Assembly: GCA_963677475.2 (NCBI GenBank)
Contig: CAXXQD010000010.1
Coordinates: forward strand, 114,247 to 178,246
Length of the DNA stretch: 64,000 bases
Source of the DNA: Prolixibacteraceae bacterium
GTDB lineage: Bacteria; Bacteroidota; Bacteroidia; Bacteroidales; Prolixibacteraceae
Direction of reading: 5' to 3'
In this document: piece after piece, positions 37,577-46,268 of the stretch
How positions within the stretch are numbered: position 1 is the first letter of the stretch
How the letters are laid out: each line of letters starts with the position of its first letter
Notes under the pieces: generated by a model
What the model was told of the DNA's origin: nothing
What the model saw: only the letters and a program-made list of their open reading frames with translations
Databases searched by the model: none
Position numbers and translations under genes: made by a program

Positions 37577-39313
37577 ATGATCGACACACTGATTATTAGA
37601 ATTCACAATTTGAGACAATATACAAAATTAATTGAAACTATACGTAATTCCTCGTGCAACGAGGGCGTTATATTGAACCAAATTGTTGACCCTTCGGGGA
37701 TAGATTTTAAACAAAATTACCTTCAAATAGTAGAGAACATATACACTGATAATGAGGATAAAAGAAACGTTCGAATGCGTGATAAGGTATATTTACCTTC
37801 ATCACATTATAAACTTTCTTGGCTTGCCGATGCAAGAAAAGATTTTTTAGAATTTAACTTTTCTGTTCCAAAATTAATATATGGTACTAATGTTATCCAG
37901 TTTATAAAGCATTTTGACGAATACCAAGACAATGAGTTTTTTGATTATTCTAGGCAGCAAGGATGGGCAAAAAATATGACAGACACTTACAAGCGGTTAA
38001 TCAAATTTATAAAGCTTTTTTTGGATATGCGATGTACATGGGAAGAAACAACAATTGAAGGTAAAAGCCTATTTAAAACCGTGGATTTAAAGGACGTAGA
38101 AATAAACCGGGTTGATTTGTGTTATAACCAATTATTTGAAACAAAGGAAAAGGCTTTGGATTATTTAGAGTTACAAAAGTCAATCCGCAAAAAAGGCTTA
38201 CGTGAAGATACGATCAATAACAAAGCTTGGAAAACTTCAGTTTGGGTACAAACTACAAACTATGTTGCAAAAATTTACCATAAAGGCTCTGAATATGCCG
38301 TAGGTGACAGAAAAGAACATGAGAGGATAAACAGGTATAACAAAGCTGAAATATTCAATGTGGATAAATTACAAGATATTTCGGATAGAACTTTGAGGTA
38401 TGAAATTTCGTTTAAGTCCAATTACATGAGTTACATATTTAAACACAAGCTTTTTAGAAAGGATTGCAAGTTTCATAATGAACTCAAAAAATACCATAAA
38501 GAGGTTAACTCAAACAATGAGAAATTAAAGAGGATTCAGGAAAAAATTATCAAGCTGGAATACCGTAAAAGCCGCTTAAATACTATTGAAAAGCATAGGA
38601 TAGAAATTTTAAAGAAGAAAATAAAAGAAGAACAGGCAAAAGTAGTAAAATTGACTAAGGCAAACAAAGAATATGTAATTGTAAAAAATAAAACCAAGTA
38701 CGCTGGAAATTGGGAAATACTTGAACCTAAATGGATGGTAGCAAGGATTTACGAAAACTTAACAAGTCAAGTATCGCACTTTTTTTTGTCTGCAACTGCA
38801 ACGGATAGGCTTGACAATCAAAAAACAATTAGGTTTGGTTATAAAAACCATAAGGTTACTTGTGTAAAGAATGCTTTGTTTTCAAGTGCGCTGCTAAATG
38901 AAATGTTGAAAATATTCAAAAGGTTTTTTAAAGAATACCAGATTGAAGTAAGGCGGGATTTTAAAAGCGTTGAAATCATGATCGAAGATTGGAACAATGC
39001 AGCAAAGATTTACAACGATGAATTTAAGGAAAGTATTAAGGCTGGCGTAGATAAAAGAAAAACATTAATAAATGTAAACAGTTTTAAAAAAATATACGAA
39101 CTGAGTAAAAATAATTCATGGGATATGTTAATCCGTAAGGGGTTAATTTCAAAGCGTTCAAAATATCGGTATATAAAACAATTTGAAGAATTAGGCATTG
39201 ATAAAAACCAGTTTGCAGTAATACCAGTGGAGGCATGTAAAGATTTTTCAGATTATCACGCTTATTTATTTTCCAATCCTGATATAAAAGTGCCAAATGT
39301 GTATTTTCATTGA
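37577..39313 (+). CDS. Rolling-circle replication initiation protein, Ff gene II / Phage_CRI-like
   Basis: Block similarity to M13 gpII recalled from memory: MIDTLIIRI (gpII MIDMLVLRL), LPSSHYKLSW, FSVPKLIYGTNV (gpII ASPAKVLQGHNV), INRVDLCYN (gpII ISRIDATFS), WKTSVWV...AKIYHKG, LRYEISFKS (gpII VRFEARIKT). Extra Lys-rich coiled-coil insert. Confidence 0.8.
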   Translation: MIDTLIIRIHNLRQYTKLIETIRNSSCNEGVILNQIVDPSGIDFKQNYLQIVENIYTDNEDKRNVRMRDKVYLPSSHYKLSWLADARKDFLEFNFSVPKLIYGTNVIQFIKHFDEYQDNEFFDYSRQQGWAKNMTDTYKRLIKFIKLFLDMRCTWEETTIEGKSLFKTVDLKDVEINRVDLCYNQLFETKEKALDYLELQKSIRKKGLREDTINNKAWKTSVWVQTTNYVAKIYHKGSEYAVGDRKEHERINRYNKAEIFNVDKLQDISDRTLRYEISFKSNYMSYIFKHKLFRKDCKFHNELKKYHKEVNSNNEKLKRIQEKIIKLEYRKSRLNTIEKHRIEILKKKIKEEQAKVVKLTKANKEYVIVKNKTKYAGNWEILEPKWMVARIYENLTSQVSHFFLSATATDRLDNQKTIRFGYKNHKVTCVKNALFSSALLNEMLKIFKRFFKEYQIEVRRDFKSVEIMIEDWNNAAKIYNDEFKESIKAGVDKRKTLINVNSFKKIYELSKNNSWDMLIRKGLISKRSKYRYIKQFEELGIDKNQFAVIPVEACKDFSDYHAYLFSNPDIKVPNVYFH

Positions 39314-39340
39314 TATTGAATAGTTAGAAAAAGGTACTAA

Positions 39341-39370
39341 AAGGGGATTTTGTAAAGAAATCCCTTTTTT
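39341..39370 (+). terminator. Rho-independent terminator after the Rep gene
   Basis: gggattt-tgtaaag-aaatccc followed by T6. Confidence 0.7.
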
Positions 39371-39448
39371 ATTTGCTTTAAATGTTACAAAATTGAATTC
39401 ATAAATATTTGAGTTCTTAAACTTATTGACAAACAAAAAGCAAAAAAA

Positions 39449-39592: not shown

Positions 39593-40585
39593 ATGATAAT
39601 TAAAGCAGGGGAAACGAAAACCGAAAAGTATCAAGGGGTTACTTTAGACGGTATTAACTTCAACGTAATGTTGAAAAAATTGGCATCCGAAACGCCAATG
39701 TCTACGGCATGGGTAAGTTTGGCTGCTGTATTTGTGAGGGCTACCCTTTCAAGGGGAGCAAAACGCCATGAGCTATTTTCAGGCAGTTTAAAAGCATTTG
39801 CGATTGAATCGGCGTTCAATGCGTCCACGTTGGGTATGGCTCTGGAAACAGGCGATTTTGTTGACTTGACGGACGATTCATTTGGTAGTGCCGAAATGGG
39901 TTCTTTGCCATTGCAAATTGATTTGGGGGCTGTCCTGAATTTAAGGAAATCGGATGTTTTGGAAGTTGAAATTTCGGTTGAGCCGAATTTTATAAATTCT
40001 ATTGCTTATCCTGATCACAAGCTGGACGAAAACCAGACATTTATCGAAGTGACGGCAAATGAAGCAATAGGGGTTGAAACACACATCCCGTTTATTTCAA
40101 TGTATGCATTGACAAATTCCGATAACCGGGTTGTGAAAAATTTGGGTGACAATGTTACTTCGGTTTCTATTATTAACCTTGACCGTACGGGATATGGTTA
40201 TAATGAAAAAATTGTCAAAAACCTGACATTGAACGCTGATAAAATCTATATCAATGACAACTTTGAAACATTGGTATTGAAGCAAATGAACGCTTACAAT
40301 AACCTTTCGGTTGCCGGAAAACGTTCCCAAAACTTCAACATTTACGAAGGTATTGAACTCGACAAGGTTACGGCTGATTTAAACCTACACAATGAGCGTA
40401 TAATTGCGGGTAAAAATTTCTTGATGTTCAGGCATTTTTACACCGATTCAGATATTCTACAGCTTGCAAAAGTGACACAGGAAATCCACCAGATAAAAGG
40501 TGCTGCAAAGGTTGGGGTAACCTCAAAATCCACCTCCGGGCTGCAAGCTCAAAAGGAGAGCCTTATCACGAAAAATGCGAAGTAG
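39593..40585 (+). CDS. Candidate major capsid protein (330 aa, beta-rich)
   Basis: Only mid-sized soluble beta-rich ORF. Has its own strong terminator. Positioned at the head of the structural block. Function is inferred, not motif-based. Confidence 0.5.
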   Translation: MIIKAGETKTEKYQGVTLDGINFNVMLKKLASETPMSTAWVSLAAVFVRATLSRGAKRHELFSGSLKAFAIESAFNASTLGMALETGDFVDLTDDSFGSAEMGSLPLQIDLGAVLNLRKSDVLEVEISVEPNFINSIAYPDHKLDENQTFIEVTANEAIGVETHIPFISMYALTNSDNRVVKNLGDNVTSVSIINLDRTGYGYNEKIVKNLTLNADKIYINDNFETLVLKQMNAYNNLSVAGKRSQNFNIYEGIELDKVTADLNLHNERIIAGKNFLMFRHFYTDSDILQLAKVTQEIHQIKGAAKVGVTSKSTSGLQAQKESLITKNAK

Positions 40586-41284: not shown

Positions 41285-41482
41285 ATGGCATATAAAAGAC
41301 GTAGCCAAAGGGCTAAAAGGAATGGTTCTAAAGTGAAAAGCTTTAAAACGAAACAAGGGCTCAAGGGATTGAGCAAAGTAACGAAAAACGGTAAGCGTAC
41401 AACAACAGAACTAACATTGCCGTACCGAACCAGGACGGGAAAAGTGAGGCGAAAAGTTGTTAAAACAACATATTTAAAGTAA
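41285..41482 (+). CDS. Highly basic 65-aa protein (candidate DNA-condensing/core protein)
   Basis: About one third of residues are K or R (MAYKRRSQRAKRNGSKVKSFKTKQGLKGLSKVTKNGKRTT...GKVRRKVVKTTYLK). No hydrophobic core. Confidence 0.6.
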   Translation: MAYKRRSQRAKRNGSKVKSFKTKQGLKGLSKVTKNGKRTTTELTLPYRTRTGKVRRKVVKTTYLK

Positions 41483-41910
41483 TGGAAAAGTTACTAAAAA
41501 AAGGGGGCTTTATGCTCCCTGTTTTGATTATAGGGTTTGTTATCATGAAAATGAGGTTTAAAAGTGATTTTTCATCATTCACGGTAGGGAACTATGATCT
41601 AAATAATGATATAAGCCACTATGCAAGGATAGCGGACACGCAATTTAATTGTATGAAAGGTTTAGGGACAAACGAAGATTATTTGTTTTCATCAATCGAA
41701 CAGTTGAACGGTGAGGAGTTAAAGGCGGTTTATAATGCTTTTGGCTCTCGTAATTACTCTATAACGGGTCAGCAAGGGATAACAGCCGAAAACAATATTT
41801 TAGGCGTTAAACTTGATTTGTTTGGATGGTATAAAAAAGAATTATCCAAAAAGGAATTAACTAAAATGCGGATGCTTTGGAATGGCAAAGGCGTTAACGT
41901 AAGTTTTTAA
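41482..41910 (+). CDS. Membrane-anchored protein with a single annexin-like repeat
   Basis: N-terminal TM segment FMLPVLIIGFVIM. MKGLGTNEDYLFSSIEQLNGEELKAVYNAFG resembles the annexin K-G-x-G-T endonexin fold. TAATG overlap with the upstream gene. Confidence 0.55.
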   Translation: MEKLLKKGGFMLPVLIIGFVIMKMRFKSDFSSFTVGNYDLNNDISHYARIADTQFNCMKGLGTNEDYLFSSIEQLNGEELKAVYNAFGSRNYSITGQQGITAENNILGVKLDLFGWYKKELSKKELTKMRMLWNGKGVNVSF

Positions 41911-41912
41911 AA

Positions 41913-44900
41913 ATGAAAAATAGGATTCTAAAAATTGCCCAACAAAATTTTGTTGGTACAAATACAATCGGAAATATAATTCCAATTCATTACGACAATA
42001 CCCAATCTTGGAAATTAAGGAATAAAGGTAGGGGCGCATTCTTCGGAAATTTCATTTTAAATGAAGGCGGTCAGGTTGTTGTAAGGTTGAACGGTCAGGA
42101 CATCAAAATAGACAAAAACTACACGAAGGAAGTTCTTTTTGAAGAACTAATTTCTATTGGTGGGATGGTTCAGCTTGTAAGCCCTCATATTTACATTAAA
42201 TCAAATAATTTGTTTAATGCAAATGAGTACTTAAAATTCAAGTTCACCGTTGCGACTGGAACGCTACAAGTAACCCTCTTGGATGATACTGTAATCCATA
42301 CCAGCCAATACACAAAGCAGGGTGAAATTGTGGACGTTGTGGACGGTGCATACAGTTTTGAGTATGAAGTGTTGAAAATACCTACGGAGGATGTTGTAGA
42401 GGTTCTTGATTCACGAAACGGAATGTATGAGTACATTCCGGCATTCGAAGGAAACGAAACAACCTACGACAAAAACAAAGTCCTGGAAAACATACGTTTT
42501 ACCATGGAACAAAATAATTTTTATTGTTTGGTTGTAGGAGGTGGAAATATATCCGTTGTGGATGTAAACGACTACGAAGTTCTGAATGTTCCAAACGTGG
42601 CTGGTGGGTATTCTTTCCGTGATGGTTTTATGGAAGTTGTGGACTCGTTGGAGGATGGAACTTATTACGTGGATTCAAACAGTTACCTGTATGAATATAC
42701 GGAAGGAACAGACCCTCAAAATGGAACTGAAAAAATAAAAGTATTGTTTGATTACATACAGTTCCAGCATGATTATGACAATGCGGTGTTTAAGTGTGTA
42801 ACGGACGAAAATACTATCACTTTGTGCGTATTGGAAAATTCGAACTGGAATGTAATTCTTTCTACTGCCAAAACCACAGGAACAATAGGCGTTTATAACA
42901 TTGTAAAAATTCCTGAAATCGGTGTTAAATACTTCGATGAAGATTTTTATTTGTTGGAGAATAAAGGCGAAAACATTGAGCCTGTAAATAAGCTGCCTTT
43001 TTCAAGTATTTCAATTGTTGGTGAAAAAGATTACTATACAATTGGTTTGATGTATTCAGCTTATGACTATCCAAATTACTATTATTTTGATGGTGAAAAT
43101 AAAGTTGATTTAGGTTTGTTGGATAACGACAATACGGTTATTCATGTGGATGGTTTGGACGGTGGAAACACTGTTGTTGACATTTTAAATAGTGAAGATA
43201 ACCCAGACAATAGGGCTGGAGTAATTTCATTGTTGGAACAATATTTTGAATTTGAGAAAAACCATGGAGAGGTAATTTGTGAGTTTGATGTTTTAAGCGA
43301 TGGAACTTTAATAAATGTTTTAACCGAGGCGGGGGAACATACAGAAGAAAAAGAGGTTCAAAAAGTACTTACACAGCCTATAATTACGGTCAAGAAATGG
43401 AATTTGATAACTGGTTCTATTGCAAAAATTGTGATTATTCCAGACGGTGATAATTTGGACATCACATTGTTTGATCCTATTACAAAGGAGCAAATTAATT
43501 CCATGTTAATGCCTTATGATGGTGAATGGATGGAAACAAAGGATTTTAGGGTCGAACTTATTGAACCGTTTGATATGTTGAGCGACCCGGATTTAGCCGG
43601 AGGCGTTGAATATTACATCAATAAAGATTCAAAAATGTTTTCGTTTATTCCTGTTGGTTCTGGCTCTGAAAACGTAAAGTTTGATTATGGACAATTGAAT
43701 ATTGACCAAAGCCTTTTTGATAATTCTGATTATGGAAAATTGATTTTCAAAATTACAAGGAATTTAAATGGCATTCTAGCCACGGAAATACAGGAATTTG
43801 ACCTTGCAAAATTGGATTATGCTACTGGTTTAAGCAATTCTTTATTGACTGGTGTCAATGAGAAGTATACTTTTTTAGCCAATGACAAAGTAAATACCTT
43901 GGCAGTTGGTCAGGCAAAAGAATTTGTCATTGATAAAGATTTGAACCTTTATTCATTTACCGGTGATTCGTCAATTATTCAAACGGAAAAAACGTTTACT
44001 GGAATTAGTGCAATATTTGACGTAGATTATGAAGGTGATAAAATAATCAAACTGGAAGTTAATCGGGCTGGTGATATTGTCGTGATCAATGCGTTTTTAG
44101 ATGAAGATGTATTGGGGGTTTTAAATTCTGATTCCGGACAGTTTACAACGGATGACGGAATGGGTAATTCTATAACGTTGGAAGATGTAAGCGCATTCTC
44201 TGAAGGTGTAAACGTTATTTATTTAAACGGCGATTTAACTATGATGTTAAAACAACCGGGTTACACAATACCAGCGCAAAAAGTCGATATTGAAAACAAT
44301 AACGGTATAAAAATCAAGGATATTGATTTTACTGGCGTTGTTGGAACAAGGATTTTAATTGATCTTTATTACACTGGAAACCCCAATGAAATAAGGGTGT
44401 TTGTATATGACATTCAGGGTAGTGCAAATTATGTAATTATTGATAAGAATATTAAAATCAATGATGGGACGGATTTTGTATGTGATTATTTTACAATTGA
44501 ATTTTTGGAAGGGTTTAGCCTTGATATGTTGCCGTATCAATTAGTAATTGATTCAGAAGGCACGTTATACGATTATCAGGCGATTATACAGGAAACATTT
44601 GATACATTCAATGTAAAGGTGTTAGCTGATACATTAGACGAGCCTATATGGCTTAATTTAAGGCAGTCCAGCGGTGAATTGAGGATGGTTTGGCAAAACT
44701 TTGATGGGACAAAATACTATTATAATCATTCACCTGATAATAATGTCAGTATTGGGGATGCAAATTTAACCCTTGGTTTCCCTGACGTTGGGGAAATTGC
44801 CTACACAGATATAAATGGTATCTATTTCGATGGCAAATTTTACCACATTGACCAAAGTGGAAACCAACACAATGAATTCGAAGGTGTGGGAACTGTTGAC

Positions 44901-45572
44901 GATTGTATAATTGTGATAAAACAAATGGGCGCAATGACCCATTGGTATTACACAATTCCCGGCGATAAGGCTTCACAGGTTAAAGTAGCCACAAAAGCCA
45001 CTGGGTATCCTGCTGAGACAGAATTTCCATTTATGGGTACATGGTTAATCCATGAAGAAATGGGACAATTGACGGACGGTATTTATTACGTAAAATCAGG
45101 TGGGCAGGCATATAAAGCAATTATGGGCGGACCAATGTTTAATGAATTATTGGGCGAACATCAGGAAAATGGCTTTTTAATGACTGACCCGGTAAATGTT
45201 CCTGATAATTACGTTCCAAGGCTTTATACTGTTCGGGAATTTAATGGGGTCCCGGTTTTTGAAATGTTAATGACTGATGGGGATTTCTCTGGTACACCTC
45301 AGTTTGTGCCAATTATGGAAATGCAGGAAGTAACTATCACGGATTCAGAATTTACATGGGAACCTGTGTATATTGGTGCGGAAATCGATGATTTTGATTT
45401 CATCTGGATTGATAACCCTAATATTGTGGATGGTGTTCCGGATACCTATGAGCCGATTATGATAGAAGTTACTGAAATGATCGGGGCAACGGATGAAGAA
45501 ATAAACCCACTGGACGAAATGGGGAATATTTCAATATTCCAATTCAACGGACATTATTTGGAGTTTGACTAA
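41913..45572 (+). CDS. Giant acidic beta-rich structural protein (1219 aa), candidate vertex/spike or receptor-binding protein
   Basis: Long uninterrupted ORF taking about 30% of the element. D/E/N/Y-rich. No TM segment, no Walker motif, no obvious internal repeats. Confidence 0.6.
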   Translation: MKNRILKIAQQNFVGTNTIGNIIPIHYDNTQSWKLRNKGRGAFFGNFILNEGGQVVVRLNGQDIKIDKNYTKEVLFEELISIGGMVQLVSPHIYIKSNNLFNANEYLKFKFTVATGTLQVTLLDDTVIHTSQYTKQGEIVDVVDGAYSFEYEVLKIPTEDVVEVLDSRNGMYEYIPAFEGNETTYDKNKVLENIRFTMEQNNFYCLVVGGGNISVVDVNDYEVLNVPNVAGGYSFRDGFMEVVDSLEDGTYYVDSNSYLYEYTEGTDPQNGTEKIKVLFDYIQFQHDYDNAVFKCVTDENTITLCVLENSNWNVILSTAKTTGTIGVYNIVKIPEIGVKYFDEDFYLLENKGENIEPVNKLPFSSISIVGEKDYYTIGLMYSAYDYPNYYYFDGENKVDLGLLDNDNTVIHVDGLDGGNTVVDILNSEDNPDNRAGVISLLEQYFEFEKNHGEVICEFDVLSDGTLINVLTEAGEHTEEKEVQKVLTQPIITVKKWNLITGSIAKIVIIPDGDNLDITLFDPITKEQINSMLMPYDGEWMETKDFRVELIEPFDMLSDPDLAGGVEYYINKDSKMFSFIPVGSGSENVKFDYGQLNIDQSLFDNSDYGKLIFKITRNLNGILATEIQEFDLAKLDYATGLSNSLLTGVNEKYTFLANDKVNTLAVGQAKEFVIDKDLNLYSFTGDSSIIQTEKTFTGISAIFDVDYEGDKIIKLEVNRAGDIVVINAFLDEDVLGVLNSDSGQFTTDDGMGNSITLEDVSAFSEGVNVIYLNGDLTMMLKQPGYTIPAQKVDIENNNGIKIKDIDFTGVVGTRILIDLYYTGNPNEIRVFVYDIQGSANYVIIDKNIKINDGTDFVCDYFTIEFLEGFSLDMLPYQLVIDSEGTLYDYQAIIQETFDTFNVKVLADTLDEPIWLNLRQSSGELRMVWQNFDGTKYYYNHSPDNNVSIGDANLTLGFPDVGEIAYTDINGIYFDGKFYHIDQSGNQHNEFEGVGTVDDCIIVIKQMGAMTHWYYTIPGDKASQVKVATKATGYPAETEFPFMGTWLIHEEMGQLTDGIYYVKSGGQAYKAIMGGPMFNELLGEHQENGFLMTDPVNVPDNYVPRLYTVREFNGVPVFEMLMTDGDFSGTPQFVPIMEMQEVTITDSEFTWEPVYIGAEIDDFDFIWIDNPNIVDGVPDTYEPIMIEVTEMIGATDEEINPLDEMGNISIFQFNGHYLEFD

Positions 45573-45799
45573 TGAAAATAGTTCTATCTATATTCTTGGG
45601 CTTGATATTGCTTGTATTAGCGGTGTTAAGCCCGTTTTTACTACTTATCTGGTTGATATTTGATGTTATCCTTACTTTGATTGATAAAACGCCTGAAAAG
45701 GCTAAAAAACCAAGTGCAAAGAAATTGTATAATAAAATGCTTTCAACAGATGACAATGAAATAATCTTAAAAAACATGCAAAATGCAAATATTCAATGA
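45572..45799 (+). CDS. Small two-TM membrane protein (holin-like or virion membrane protein)
   Basis: IVLSIFLGLILLVLAVLSPFLLLIWLIFDVILTLI followed by a Lys-rich tail. TAATG overlap with the giant ORF. Confidence 0.6.
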   Translation: MKIVLSIFLGLILLVLAVLSPFLLLIWLIFDVILTLIDKTPEKAKKPSAKKLYNKMLSTDDNEIILKNMQNANIQ

Positions 45800-46268
45800 T
45801 CCTACATACTTAACCAAAAATTTCAAGTTCTCGGAATTCTTTACAAAAAGTAAAGATTTCGAACAAAGTGAAAGCCATTATTTAGATGACCGTTTGATTC
45901 AGGCGGTTCAATGGCTCAGGGACTTAACAGGCAGGCGGATTAAGATAAATAGTTCTTACCGTACTTTAAAGCATAATACATTGATTGGCGGGGCTTCAAA
46001 TAGTTATCATATGAAGGGTATGGCGGTCGATTTTGCTTTTATGGCAAACGACAATAAAGAAATGATAACGAAACTGAAAAACGCTTACAATGACCCGGAA
46101 GATAAGTTAAAAAGCAGTTTAACTGATATGGGTATCAATGGCATTATATTTTATGACACATTTATTCACATTGACACAAGGGAAAAGCCTTATGTTTCAG
46201 ACCGTTCAACACGGGGAAATGTAATGGGTATAGTTCTTTTACTGGCAATGTATTTTATTCTCGGTTAG
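45783..46268 (+). CDS. Peptidase M15 (zinc D-Ala-D-Ala carboxypeptidase-type) endolysin with hydrophobic C-terminus
   Basis: INSSYRTLKHN...SYHMKGMAVDF...FIHIDTR (H-x6-D...H zinc motif). C-terminal VMGIVLLLAMYFILG. Confidence 0.8.
   Translation: MQIFNDPTYLTKNFKFSEFFTKSKDFEQSESHYLDDRLIQAVQWLRDLTGRRIKINSSYRTLKHNTLIGGASNSYHMKGMAVDFAFMANDNKEMITKLKNAYNDPEDKLKSSLTDMGINGIIFYDTFIHIDTREKPYVSDRSTRGNVMGIVLLLAMYFILG

Follow-up and report, generated by a model that had tools for sequence, protein, structure and literature searches.

In 2018 Yutin et al. brought together, as the 'FLiP group', contigs and prophages from Bacteroidetes, of up to 17 kb, which carry a FLiP-like double jelly-roll (DJR) major capsid protein (MCP), an M13-like rolling-circle replication endonuclease (RCRE, of the CRI type) and often a single-strand DNA-binding protein (SSB) (PMC5894146). 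Further putative prophages are listed in the FLiP-2 paper. A second set of described elements, the phiCjT23-like prophages of Flavobacterium, also have single-stranded DNA (ssDNA), membrane-containing DJR capsids and Bacteroidota hosts, and integrate at dif via the host XerC/D, with no integrase of their own (PMC9719478). Here we describe a replication initiator gene, rep, found at positions 37577-39313 of a 64,000-nucleotide stretch of DNA ('the window') from a Prolixibacteraceae bacterium (assembly GCA_963677475.2, contig CAXXQD010000010.1, positions 114,247 to 178,246). Sequence comparisons make it very probable that its product, Rep, is the gene II/Phage_CRI-type replication initiator of a 12,428-bp FLiP-like (Finnlakeviridae-like) ssDNA prophage located in the chromosomal dif site of this bacterium. 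All coordinates given below are positions in the window, and lie on the plus strand unless otherwise stated.

The reference enzyme is the gene II protein (gpII) of the Ff phages (M13, f1 and fd), in which Tyr-197 is the tyrosine that becomes covalently linked to the nicked strand (PMC5405960, 1999). An N-terminal D, followed by RxD, YxKxxE and RxE, makes up the motif set of the Rep_trans initiators, in which the D, D and E residues hold the metal, and the same set recurs in Phage_CRI (PMC5714925, PMC4797284).

Rep and the gene II family

A preliminary description of this DNA, made from the letters alone, had noted an open reading frame (ORF) of 578 residues, compared to about 410 for gpII, and five blocks in it that resembled M13 gpII. 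The ORF is present exactly at 37577-39313, and M13 gpII does have 410 residues (NC_003287). All five blocks were located within it, namely MIDTLIIRI (residues 1-9), FSVPKLIYGTNV (95-106), INRVDLCYN (176-184), WKTSVWV..AKIYHKG (217-237) and LRYEISFKS (273-281). A profile-profile alignment was made using hhalign, in which 36 relatives of Rep were compared with six inovirus gpII sequences (from M13, IKe, three Dulem viruses and a Pseudomonas phage). Each of the blocks falls on the matching block of gpII, the M13 counterparts being, in the same order, MIDMLVLRL, ASPAKVLQGHNV, ISRIDATFS, WESTVTW..VAYLKH and VRFEARIKT. The alignment covers 238 columns and places residues 1-285 of Rep on gpII 1-254, with a probability of 97.9% and an E-value of 5.9e-13, which puts the agreement of the blocks far beyond chance.

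The first 295 residues of Rep, when scanned alone, match the Pfam family PF05144 (Phage_CRI, 'Replication-associated protein G2P N-terminal') with 29.6 bits over residues 163-285, the curated cut-off being 21.7 bits. A six-frame search of the entire 5.2-Mb genome with the same model identified the rep locus as the sole match, with 30.3 bits, and none of 14 control genomes searched in this way gave a match above the cut-off. PF05144 is matched by 33 of 37 aligned family members (best E 7.9e-14), and also by both FLiP ORF15 and M13 gpII. Full-length Rep matches phrog_702, annotated 'replication protein', in PHROGs (E 3.8e-10). When Rep was compared by tblastn with 50,697 phage records, only FLiP and FLiP-2 were found, the matching protein being ORF15, a 'replication initiation protein'. 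The earlier reading of the gene as a gene II-type initiator is thus borne out by a hidden Markov model search, both for the N-terminal domain alone and in the six-frame search of the genome, and no better match to an unrelated family, such as a primase or a helicase, was found.

The catalytic domain is predicted to comprise residues 1-292 (37577-38452) and to be rich in β-sheet, as indicated by the conserved motifs and by AlphaFold2. The AlphaFold2 model of the full-length protein, based on 36 sequences, has a mean predicted local distance difference test (pLDDT) score of 86.4 and a predicted template modelling (pTM) score of 0.86, and the model of the N-terminal domain alone has a pLDDT of 82.3. 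The motifs read in Rep as D3, R178-x-D180, Y234-H-K236-G-S-E239 and R274-Y-E276. In the hhalign alignment, D3 (codon 37583-37585) corresponds to D3 of gpII, R178 and D180 (38108-38116) to R141 and D143, Y234 and K236 of the Y234-x-K236-x-x-E239 motif (38276-38293) to Y197 and K199, and R274-x-E276 (38396-38404) to R243 and E245. Thirteen positions are invariant in the alignment of 36 relatives (S96, P98, K99, N105, D180, F187, K232, Y234, K236, G237, E239, R274 and E276), while D3, R178 and H235 are near-invariant, D3 and R178 being kept in at least 90% of the relatives.

Each of D3, D180, Y234 and E276 is on a separate predicted β-strand, and Carr et al. note that the active-site residues of Rep_trans are likewise found on β-strands (PMC5714925). 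We propose that these four residues form one shared active site. A structure prediction had been suggested at the outset as a means of locating the catalytic tyrosine. Tyr234 (codon 38276-38278) is invariant in the family, is aligned by hhalign to gpII Tyr-197 and is on a predicted β-strand. Tyr234 is therefore the predicted nucleophile, which would become linked to the 5' phosphate at the nick. By analogy with gpII, it is presumed that Rep nicks a plus-strand origin with covalent attachment to the 5' end.

A number of results weigh against this assignment and should be set beside it. When full-length Rep is searched using hmmscan, no Pfam family is matched at E <= 10. Plain BLASTP of Rep against M13 gpII is not significant (the two are about 16% identical), and the relationship to gpII is therefore a remote one; as a consequence of these two null results, membership of the family rests on profile methods. 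Foldseek searches of the PDB, using the full-length and the N-terminal domain models, gave nothing better than E 0.1 and no Rep_trans structure, and hence no structural link to Rep_trans is demonstrated. Among the predicted viral structures of BFVD there are four matches with E <= 1e-3, the best fold match being 'Replication-associated protein G2P [Inoviridae sp.]' (E 2.3e-6, probability 1.0), with template modelling (TM) scores that are low, at 0.22-0.36. Finally, comparison with relatives reveals no conserved origin or nick motif, as detailed below.

The full-length Pfam miss was judged to be a false negative, because the N-terminal domain scanned alone matches PF05144 above the cut-off. The cause is probably the Lys-rich, low-complexity linker described below, which would trigger the HMMER filters, and for this reason other members of the Rep family may be under-annotated through the same miss. 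NCBIfam likewise gave no match for full-length Rep, and has no matching model. Sequence and profile searches of the PDB with Rep returned coiled-coil noise only, and it appears that no gene II-type structure has been solved.

It is worth asking whether Rep might instead be an initiator of the Rep_trans type, such as pT181 RepC/RepD or CTXphi RstA, or of the HUH type. Residues 175-289 do match the Rep_trans family PF02486, at 16.3 bits (E 0.0075) compared to a cut-off of 29.6 bits, and the related phage phiCjT23 has a Rep of Rep_trans type (PMC9719478). However, on the same stretch PF05144 scores higher, and above its own cut-off; no relative matches either PF02486 or an HUH family at E <= 0.01; hhalign puts the whole of the N-terminal domain on gpII; and there is no Rep_trans structure among the Foldseek results. 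The HUH endonuclease families (Rep_1, Rep_2, Phage_GPA and Viral_Rep) were considered and rejected, there being no Pfam match to them for Rep or for any of 37 relatives. The weak PF02486 match is in keeping with the remote relationship that Carr et al. proposed between the two families (PMC5714925). We therefore regard a Rep_trans or HUH identity as very improbable, and retain the gene II/Phage_CRI assignment.

The Rep family as a whole comprises 435 clusters at 50% identity, with 74 loci in species-representative genomes, and is almost confined to Bacteroidota. Within the host family it is sporadic, being found in three of 101 sampled genomes. One homologue (P0039) comes from a metagenome-assembled genome labelled 'Candidatus Hodarchaeales archaeon', and another, at locus L092, is labelled 'Candidatus Lithacetigena'. 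Set against a distribution otherwise restricted to Bacteroidota, these two have the appearance of contamination during binning, if they are not rare jumps between hosts.

The linker and the C-terminal region

The catalytic domain is followed by a Lys/Glu-rich helical hairpin at residues 298-363 (38468-38665), which was delimited using AlphaFold2, composition and heptad phase. AlphaFold2 predicts two helices, 298-333 and 339-363, with a short turn between them, and a pLDDT of 92-97 over the block. Lys makes up 27% of residues 295-365, and charged residues in all 48%, and in the two predicted helices 8 of 10 and 5 of 7 of the a/d heptad positions are hydrophobic. The preliminary description had considered this segment to be an extra, heptad-like insertion rich in Lys and Glu. 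The segment itself, its richness in Lys and its heptad phase are all as described, but it is not a one-off insertion. The distance from E276 to the conserved F402 is 125 residues in Rep and 121-123 in its five nearest relatives, but ranges from 58 to 143 across the 36 relatives and is 47 in FLiP. A linker that varies between 47 and 143 residues across the family implies that the Lys/Glu-rich segment is an expanded form of a variable linker, towards the long end of the range.

The charged antiparallel hairpin is conserved within the Rep subfamily. One could imagine that it has a function of its own, which Ff gpII and FLiP Rep would lack, rather than being a passive spacer: for example, it could recruit the host helicase or DNA coated with SSB, or could mediate oligomerisation of Rep, so coupling rolling-circle synthesis to the packaging of ssDNA. 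We consider this unlikely. If it were true, the hairpin would tie rolling-circle synthesis to the filling of a capsid that contains a membrane and lacks a packaging ATPase.

Beyond the linker, residues 435-559 (38879-39253) are probably homologous to the C-terminal (gene X) part of gpII, and include a helix-turn-helix (HTH)-like element at approximately residues 515-545. Local hhalign of the cut C-terminal alignments places this region on gpII 275-396 with a probability of 91% and an E-value of 9.8e-7 (the probability is 50% in global mode), and the best BLASTP segment against M13 gpII also falls here (E 0.036). The region has no Pfam match of its own. PF05155 (G2P_X_C) is matched by one of 37 relatives, and single relatives match G2P_X_C or HTH families. 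In gpII the gene X product begins at an internal in-frame start, and in Rep Met468 is found near the column of gpII Met300, but this column is not Met in the relatives. Just past the rep stop codon there is a terminator-like hairpin with a T-run (39340-39374), which was read from the sequence in a repeat search.

The prophage, its integration site and its replication

The element is bounded by two perfect copies of a 30-bp dif-like direct repeat, attL at 36143-36172 and attR at 48571-48600. Their spacing of 12,428 bp is the size of the element, and these are the only two copies in the 5.2-Mb genome, which is 99% complete by a marker-gene estimate. The right copy runs on into a host-type XerC arm (…ATTATAGGACAA), and the left copy into phage sequence. 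The reverse complement of the repeat carries TTATGATAAAT, which matches 10 of 11 bases of the XerD arm of E. coli. In five related genomes (G003, G005, G006, G007 and G012) the joined host flanks are contiguous, in one case at 86% identity. These empty sites in congeners carry the repeat sequence once, and their reverse strand reads TTGTCCTATAA-TTGATA-TTAAGTTAAAT, a conserved core that resembles E. coli dif. We infer that the element integrated at dif through Xer, as an integrative mobile element exploiting Xer (IMEX). This is also the mode of integration of the phiCjT23-like prophages (PMC9719478). No integrase domain was detected among the ORFs of the element scanned with Pfam and PHROGs, and there is no tRNA gene at its ends.

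The cumulative GC skew of the window has its maximum at about 48-52 kb and then falls, which fits a prophage sited at the terminus of replication, the expected place for dif. The host GyrA is 82-85% identical to proteins of Draconibacterium, Maribellus and Prolixibacteraceae. Non-coding host DNA on the right-hand side of the prophage contains two copies of a 37-nt repeat (48735-48771 and 48913-48949), and a stretch of about 55 nt at 49220-49275 that matches several other contigs, in the same genome (C8) and in related genomes, with 82-93% identity.

Within these boundaries, rep is preceded by a gene for a phage SSB of 105 residues (36996-37313; Pfam SSB, E 2.2e-12; phrog_44) and followed by one for an MCP of 330 residues (39593-40585) of the FLiP double jelly-roll type. 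The MCP is 27-28% identical to those of FLiP and FLiP-2 at 94% coverage by tblastn (E 5e-17), and phmmer pairs it with PDB 5oac_A, the FLiP capsid chain of known structure ('Major capsid protein', E 2.4e-19). An endolysin (Peptidase_M15_3) is encoded at 45783-46268 (Pfam E 7.6e-17; phrog_894 endolysin, E 1.3e-25). No packaging ATPase or Zot domain was found in the 16 ORFs of the element that were scanned with Pfam, 10 of them also with PHROGs, and several of these ORFs have no match of any kind. On the basis of the type of Rep, the SSB, the MCP and the genes for small membrane proteins, the genome of the phage would appear to be circular ssDNA, carried in an icosahedral virion that has a membrane inside. 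The preliminary description had spoken of a lysis cassette in a lytic element; the endolysin is indeed present, but the element is not simply lytic, being an integrated prophage of temperate type.

The gene order is shared with a 14-kb metagenome contig (L019), in which a protein of 172 residues, SSB, Rep, MCP, small proteins, a very large protein and M15 follow one another as they do here. Rep, SSB and MCP are in one operon direction, and their order recurs in L019 and in three other related elements (L027, L054 and L065).

These features bear on two further alternatives. The first is that Rep is the initiator of a decayed prophage remnant that is no longer inducible, its sequence perhaps being intact but without a current role. 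The sporadic occurrence of the Rep family, in three of 101 genomes of the host family, would fit elements that are transient and soon lost. The element shows little sign of decay, however: both 30-bp repeats are perfect, every invariant residue of the family is kept in Rep, all of the genes expected from L019 are present as open frames, and neither stop codons nor frameshifts were seen in the genes for Rep, MCP, SSB and endolysin. A decayed remnant therefore seems to us distinctly unlikely, and we prefer to consider Rep as the initiator of an intact prophage.

The second alternative would place Rep on a plasmid, satellite or integrative mobilisable element that happens to be beside phage genes, with its nicking serving transfer in place of phage replication. 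Most of the closest genomic homologues of Rep (L021-L046, 30-35% identity) have none detectable within 10 kb. Against this, Rep is found inside one att-bounded unit of 12.4 kb and shares its operon direction with SSB and MCP, the gene order recurs in L019, L027, L054 and L065, and Pfam and PHROGs scans of the element's ORFs revealed no relaxase accessory or conjugation gene. We find this explanation scarcely credible compared to a phage replication gene. As to the homologues L021-L046 themselves (from Prolixibacteraceae, Carboxylicivirga, Mangrovibacterium and others, at about 29-38% identity), almost all are without an MCP of FLiP type that tblastn can detect within 10 kb, L027 being the exception. 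Either the capsid genes at these loci have diverged much further, or the Rep module is carried by elements of other types. Over all 74 loci of the family, a FLiP-type MCP is detectable nearby in only 18.

Several other genes of the element can be described. A membrane-anchored protein of 142 residues (41482-41910) resembles annexin repeats weakly over residues 49-89 (phmmer against the PDB, with annexin VI and V at E about 1e-3), and is kept in L019, L027, L054 and L065. An ORF of 1219 residues (41913-45572) takes up about 30% of the element; its sole Pfam match, to DUF1307, is below the cut-off at 22.6 bits, and it has no PHROG match. L019 holds an ORF of 900 residues at the same position. 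The protein is presumably a spike or receptor-binding protein, far larger than the putative spike of FLiP, which has 336 residues. On the minus strand, at 46835-47957, three small ORFs of 93, 119 and 65 residues converge on the plus-strand module and have no family matches; L019 also has a minus-strand block at the corresponding end. They are a possible lysogeny or regulation module.

The non-coding DNA contains two candidate replication features. One is a long imperfect hairpin in phage non-coding DNA at 47985-48172, with an inverted repeat at 48022-48046 and 48110-48134. The DNA fold of 47960-48300 has an energy of -62.9 kcal/mol (z = -6.47 compared to shuffled sequences), and the hairpin is a reasonable candidate for the complementary-strand (single-strand) origin. 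The other is a pair of exact 44-bp tandem repeats at 46686-46773, between the convergent gene modules, which are a candidate protein-binding array and for which no counterpart was found in L019 or FLiP. The comparisons in which a conserved origin was sought gave little. Blastn of the element against L019 gave coding matches only; when the intergenic region was circularised and compared by short-word blastn with L019, FLiP and FLiP-2, the matches were 12-13-mers attributable to chance, one of them on the start codon of FLiP ORF1; the 9-mers shared in the non-coding DNA of nine elements were A/T runs only; and an Rfam search of 46.5-49.8 kb gave only noise below threshold.

A model for replication can be drawn on the pattern of Ff gpII and related Rep_trans enzymes, with all of the biochemical steps and the location of the origin inferred. 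Following excision or infection, host enzymes would turn the circular ssDNA into a supercoiled duplex. Rep would then bind the plus-strand origin, which is probably read by its C-terminal domain (the part related to the gpII C-terminus, with the HTH-like element), and would cut one strand, with the carboxylate triad of D3, D180 and E276 holding a divalent metal and Tyr234 becoming esterified to the 5' phosphate. The Lys/Glu-rich hairpin of residues 298-363 would serve as the expanded variable linker between the two domains. The host helicase and DNA polymerase III would extend the free 3'-OH round the circle, after which Rep would cut and rejoin the displaced strand to release circular ssDNA. 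This would be coated by the phage SSB and packaged into the membrane-containing double jelly-roll capsid.

Comparison with known systems

The Ff gpII proteins (M13/f1/fd; PF05144 with PF05155) share with Rep an N-terminal catalytic domain that is homologous along its full length, in which the catalytic tyrosine is kept along with the motif residues, both acidic and basic. The chemistry is presumed, by analogy, to be the same, that is, a nick with a 5'-phosphotyrosine link. The differences are that Rep has an additional helical hairpin of 70-80 residues, that the similarity is visible to profiles only, and that no conserved in-frame internal start matching gene X was found in Rep. In addition, the Ff phages are filaments extruded by Zot/pI and pIV, whereas the capsid here would be icosahedral and membrane-containing.

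Rep resembles the Rep_trans initiators (pT181 RepC/RepD and pSTK1 Rep; PF02486) in the order of the motifs, in the location of the residues on β-strands and in the weak Pfam match. It is nonetheless below the PF02486 cut-off and has no Foldseek match to the solved structures, and thus is not a member of that family. The phiCjT23-like prophages differ from the present element in having a Rep of Rep_trans type (HHpred matches it to a Geobacillus initiator), genomes of 6-8.4 kb, and an MCP that is only remotely FLiP-like (PMC9719478).

The closest characterised relative is FLiP. Each genome combines a PF05144 Rep with an MCP of the FLiP double jelly-roll type, and neither has a recognisable packaging ATPase. 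FLiP ORF15 is 33% identical to Rep over residues 1-288 (E 4e-34), and a further match is found in the C-terminal domain. Rep is longer (578 residues compared to 447), mostly because of the linker (125 residues compared to 47), and the genome is larger, at 12.4 kb compared to 9.2 kb. The rep gene is upstream of MCP and beside SSB, whereas in FLiP it is found at the end of the structural module. There is an M15 endolysin in place of the lytic transglycosylase of FLiP, and the host is a member of the Prolixibacteraceae rather than a Flavobacterium.

The FLiP group of Yutin et al. has an identical gene set (Rep of CRI type, FLiP-like MCP and SSB), the same host phylum, a size range that includes this element, and flanking direct repeats. 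What differs is that here the att repeats are recognisable as dif, and that congeners have the site empty. That such a Rep should accompany a capsid protein in place of a Zot ATPase had struck the preliminary description as unusual. The combination is genuine, the MCP being of FLiP type and no Zot having been found in the scanned ORFs, but it has already been published as the FLiP group. The element is therefore an additional member of a known group and no new kind of system, and our knowledge of the kind of system is unchanged by it, although the particular element and its host are, as far as we have seen, undescribed. Its value is practical, as a model locus. Few phages of FLiP type have been cultured, among them FLiP, FLiP-2 and Cellulophaga phi48:2 (assigned to the group by Yutin et al., PMC5894146). 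The locus provides an intact and precisely bounded FLiP-type prophage from a different bacterial family, the Prolixibacteraceae, with a Rep in which the catalytic residues can be identified. It would thus make a convenient starting point for the biochemistry of the gene II family, for the origin of a double jelly-roll ssDNA phage, and for the switch between integration and rolling-circle replication.

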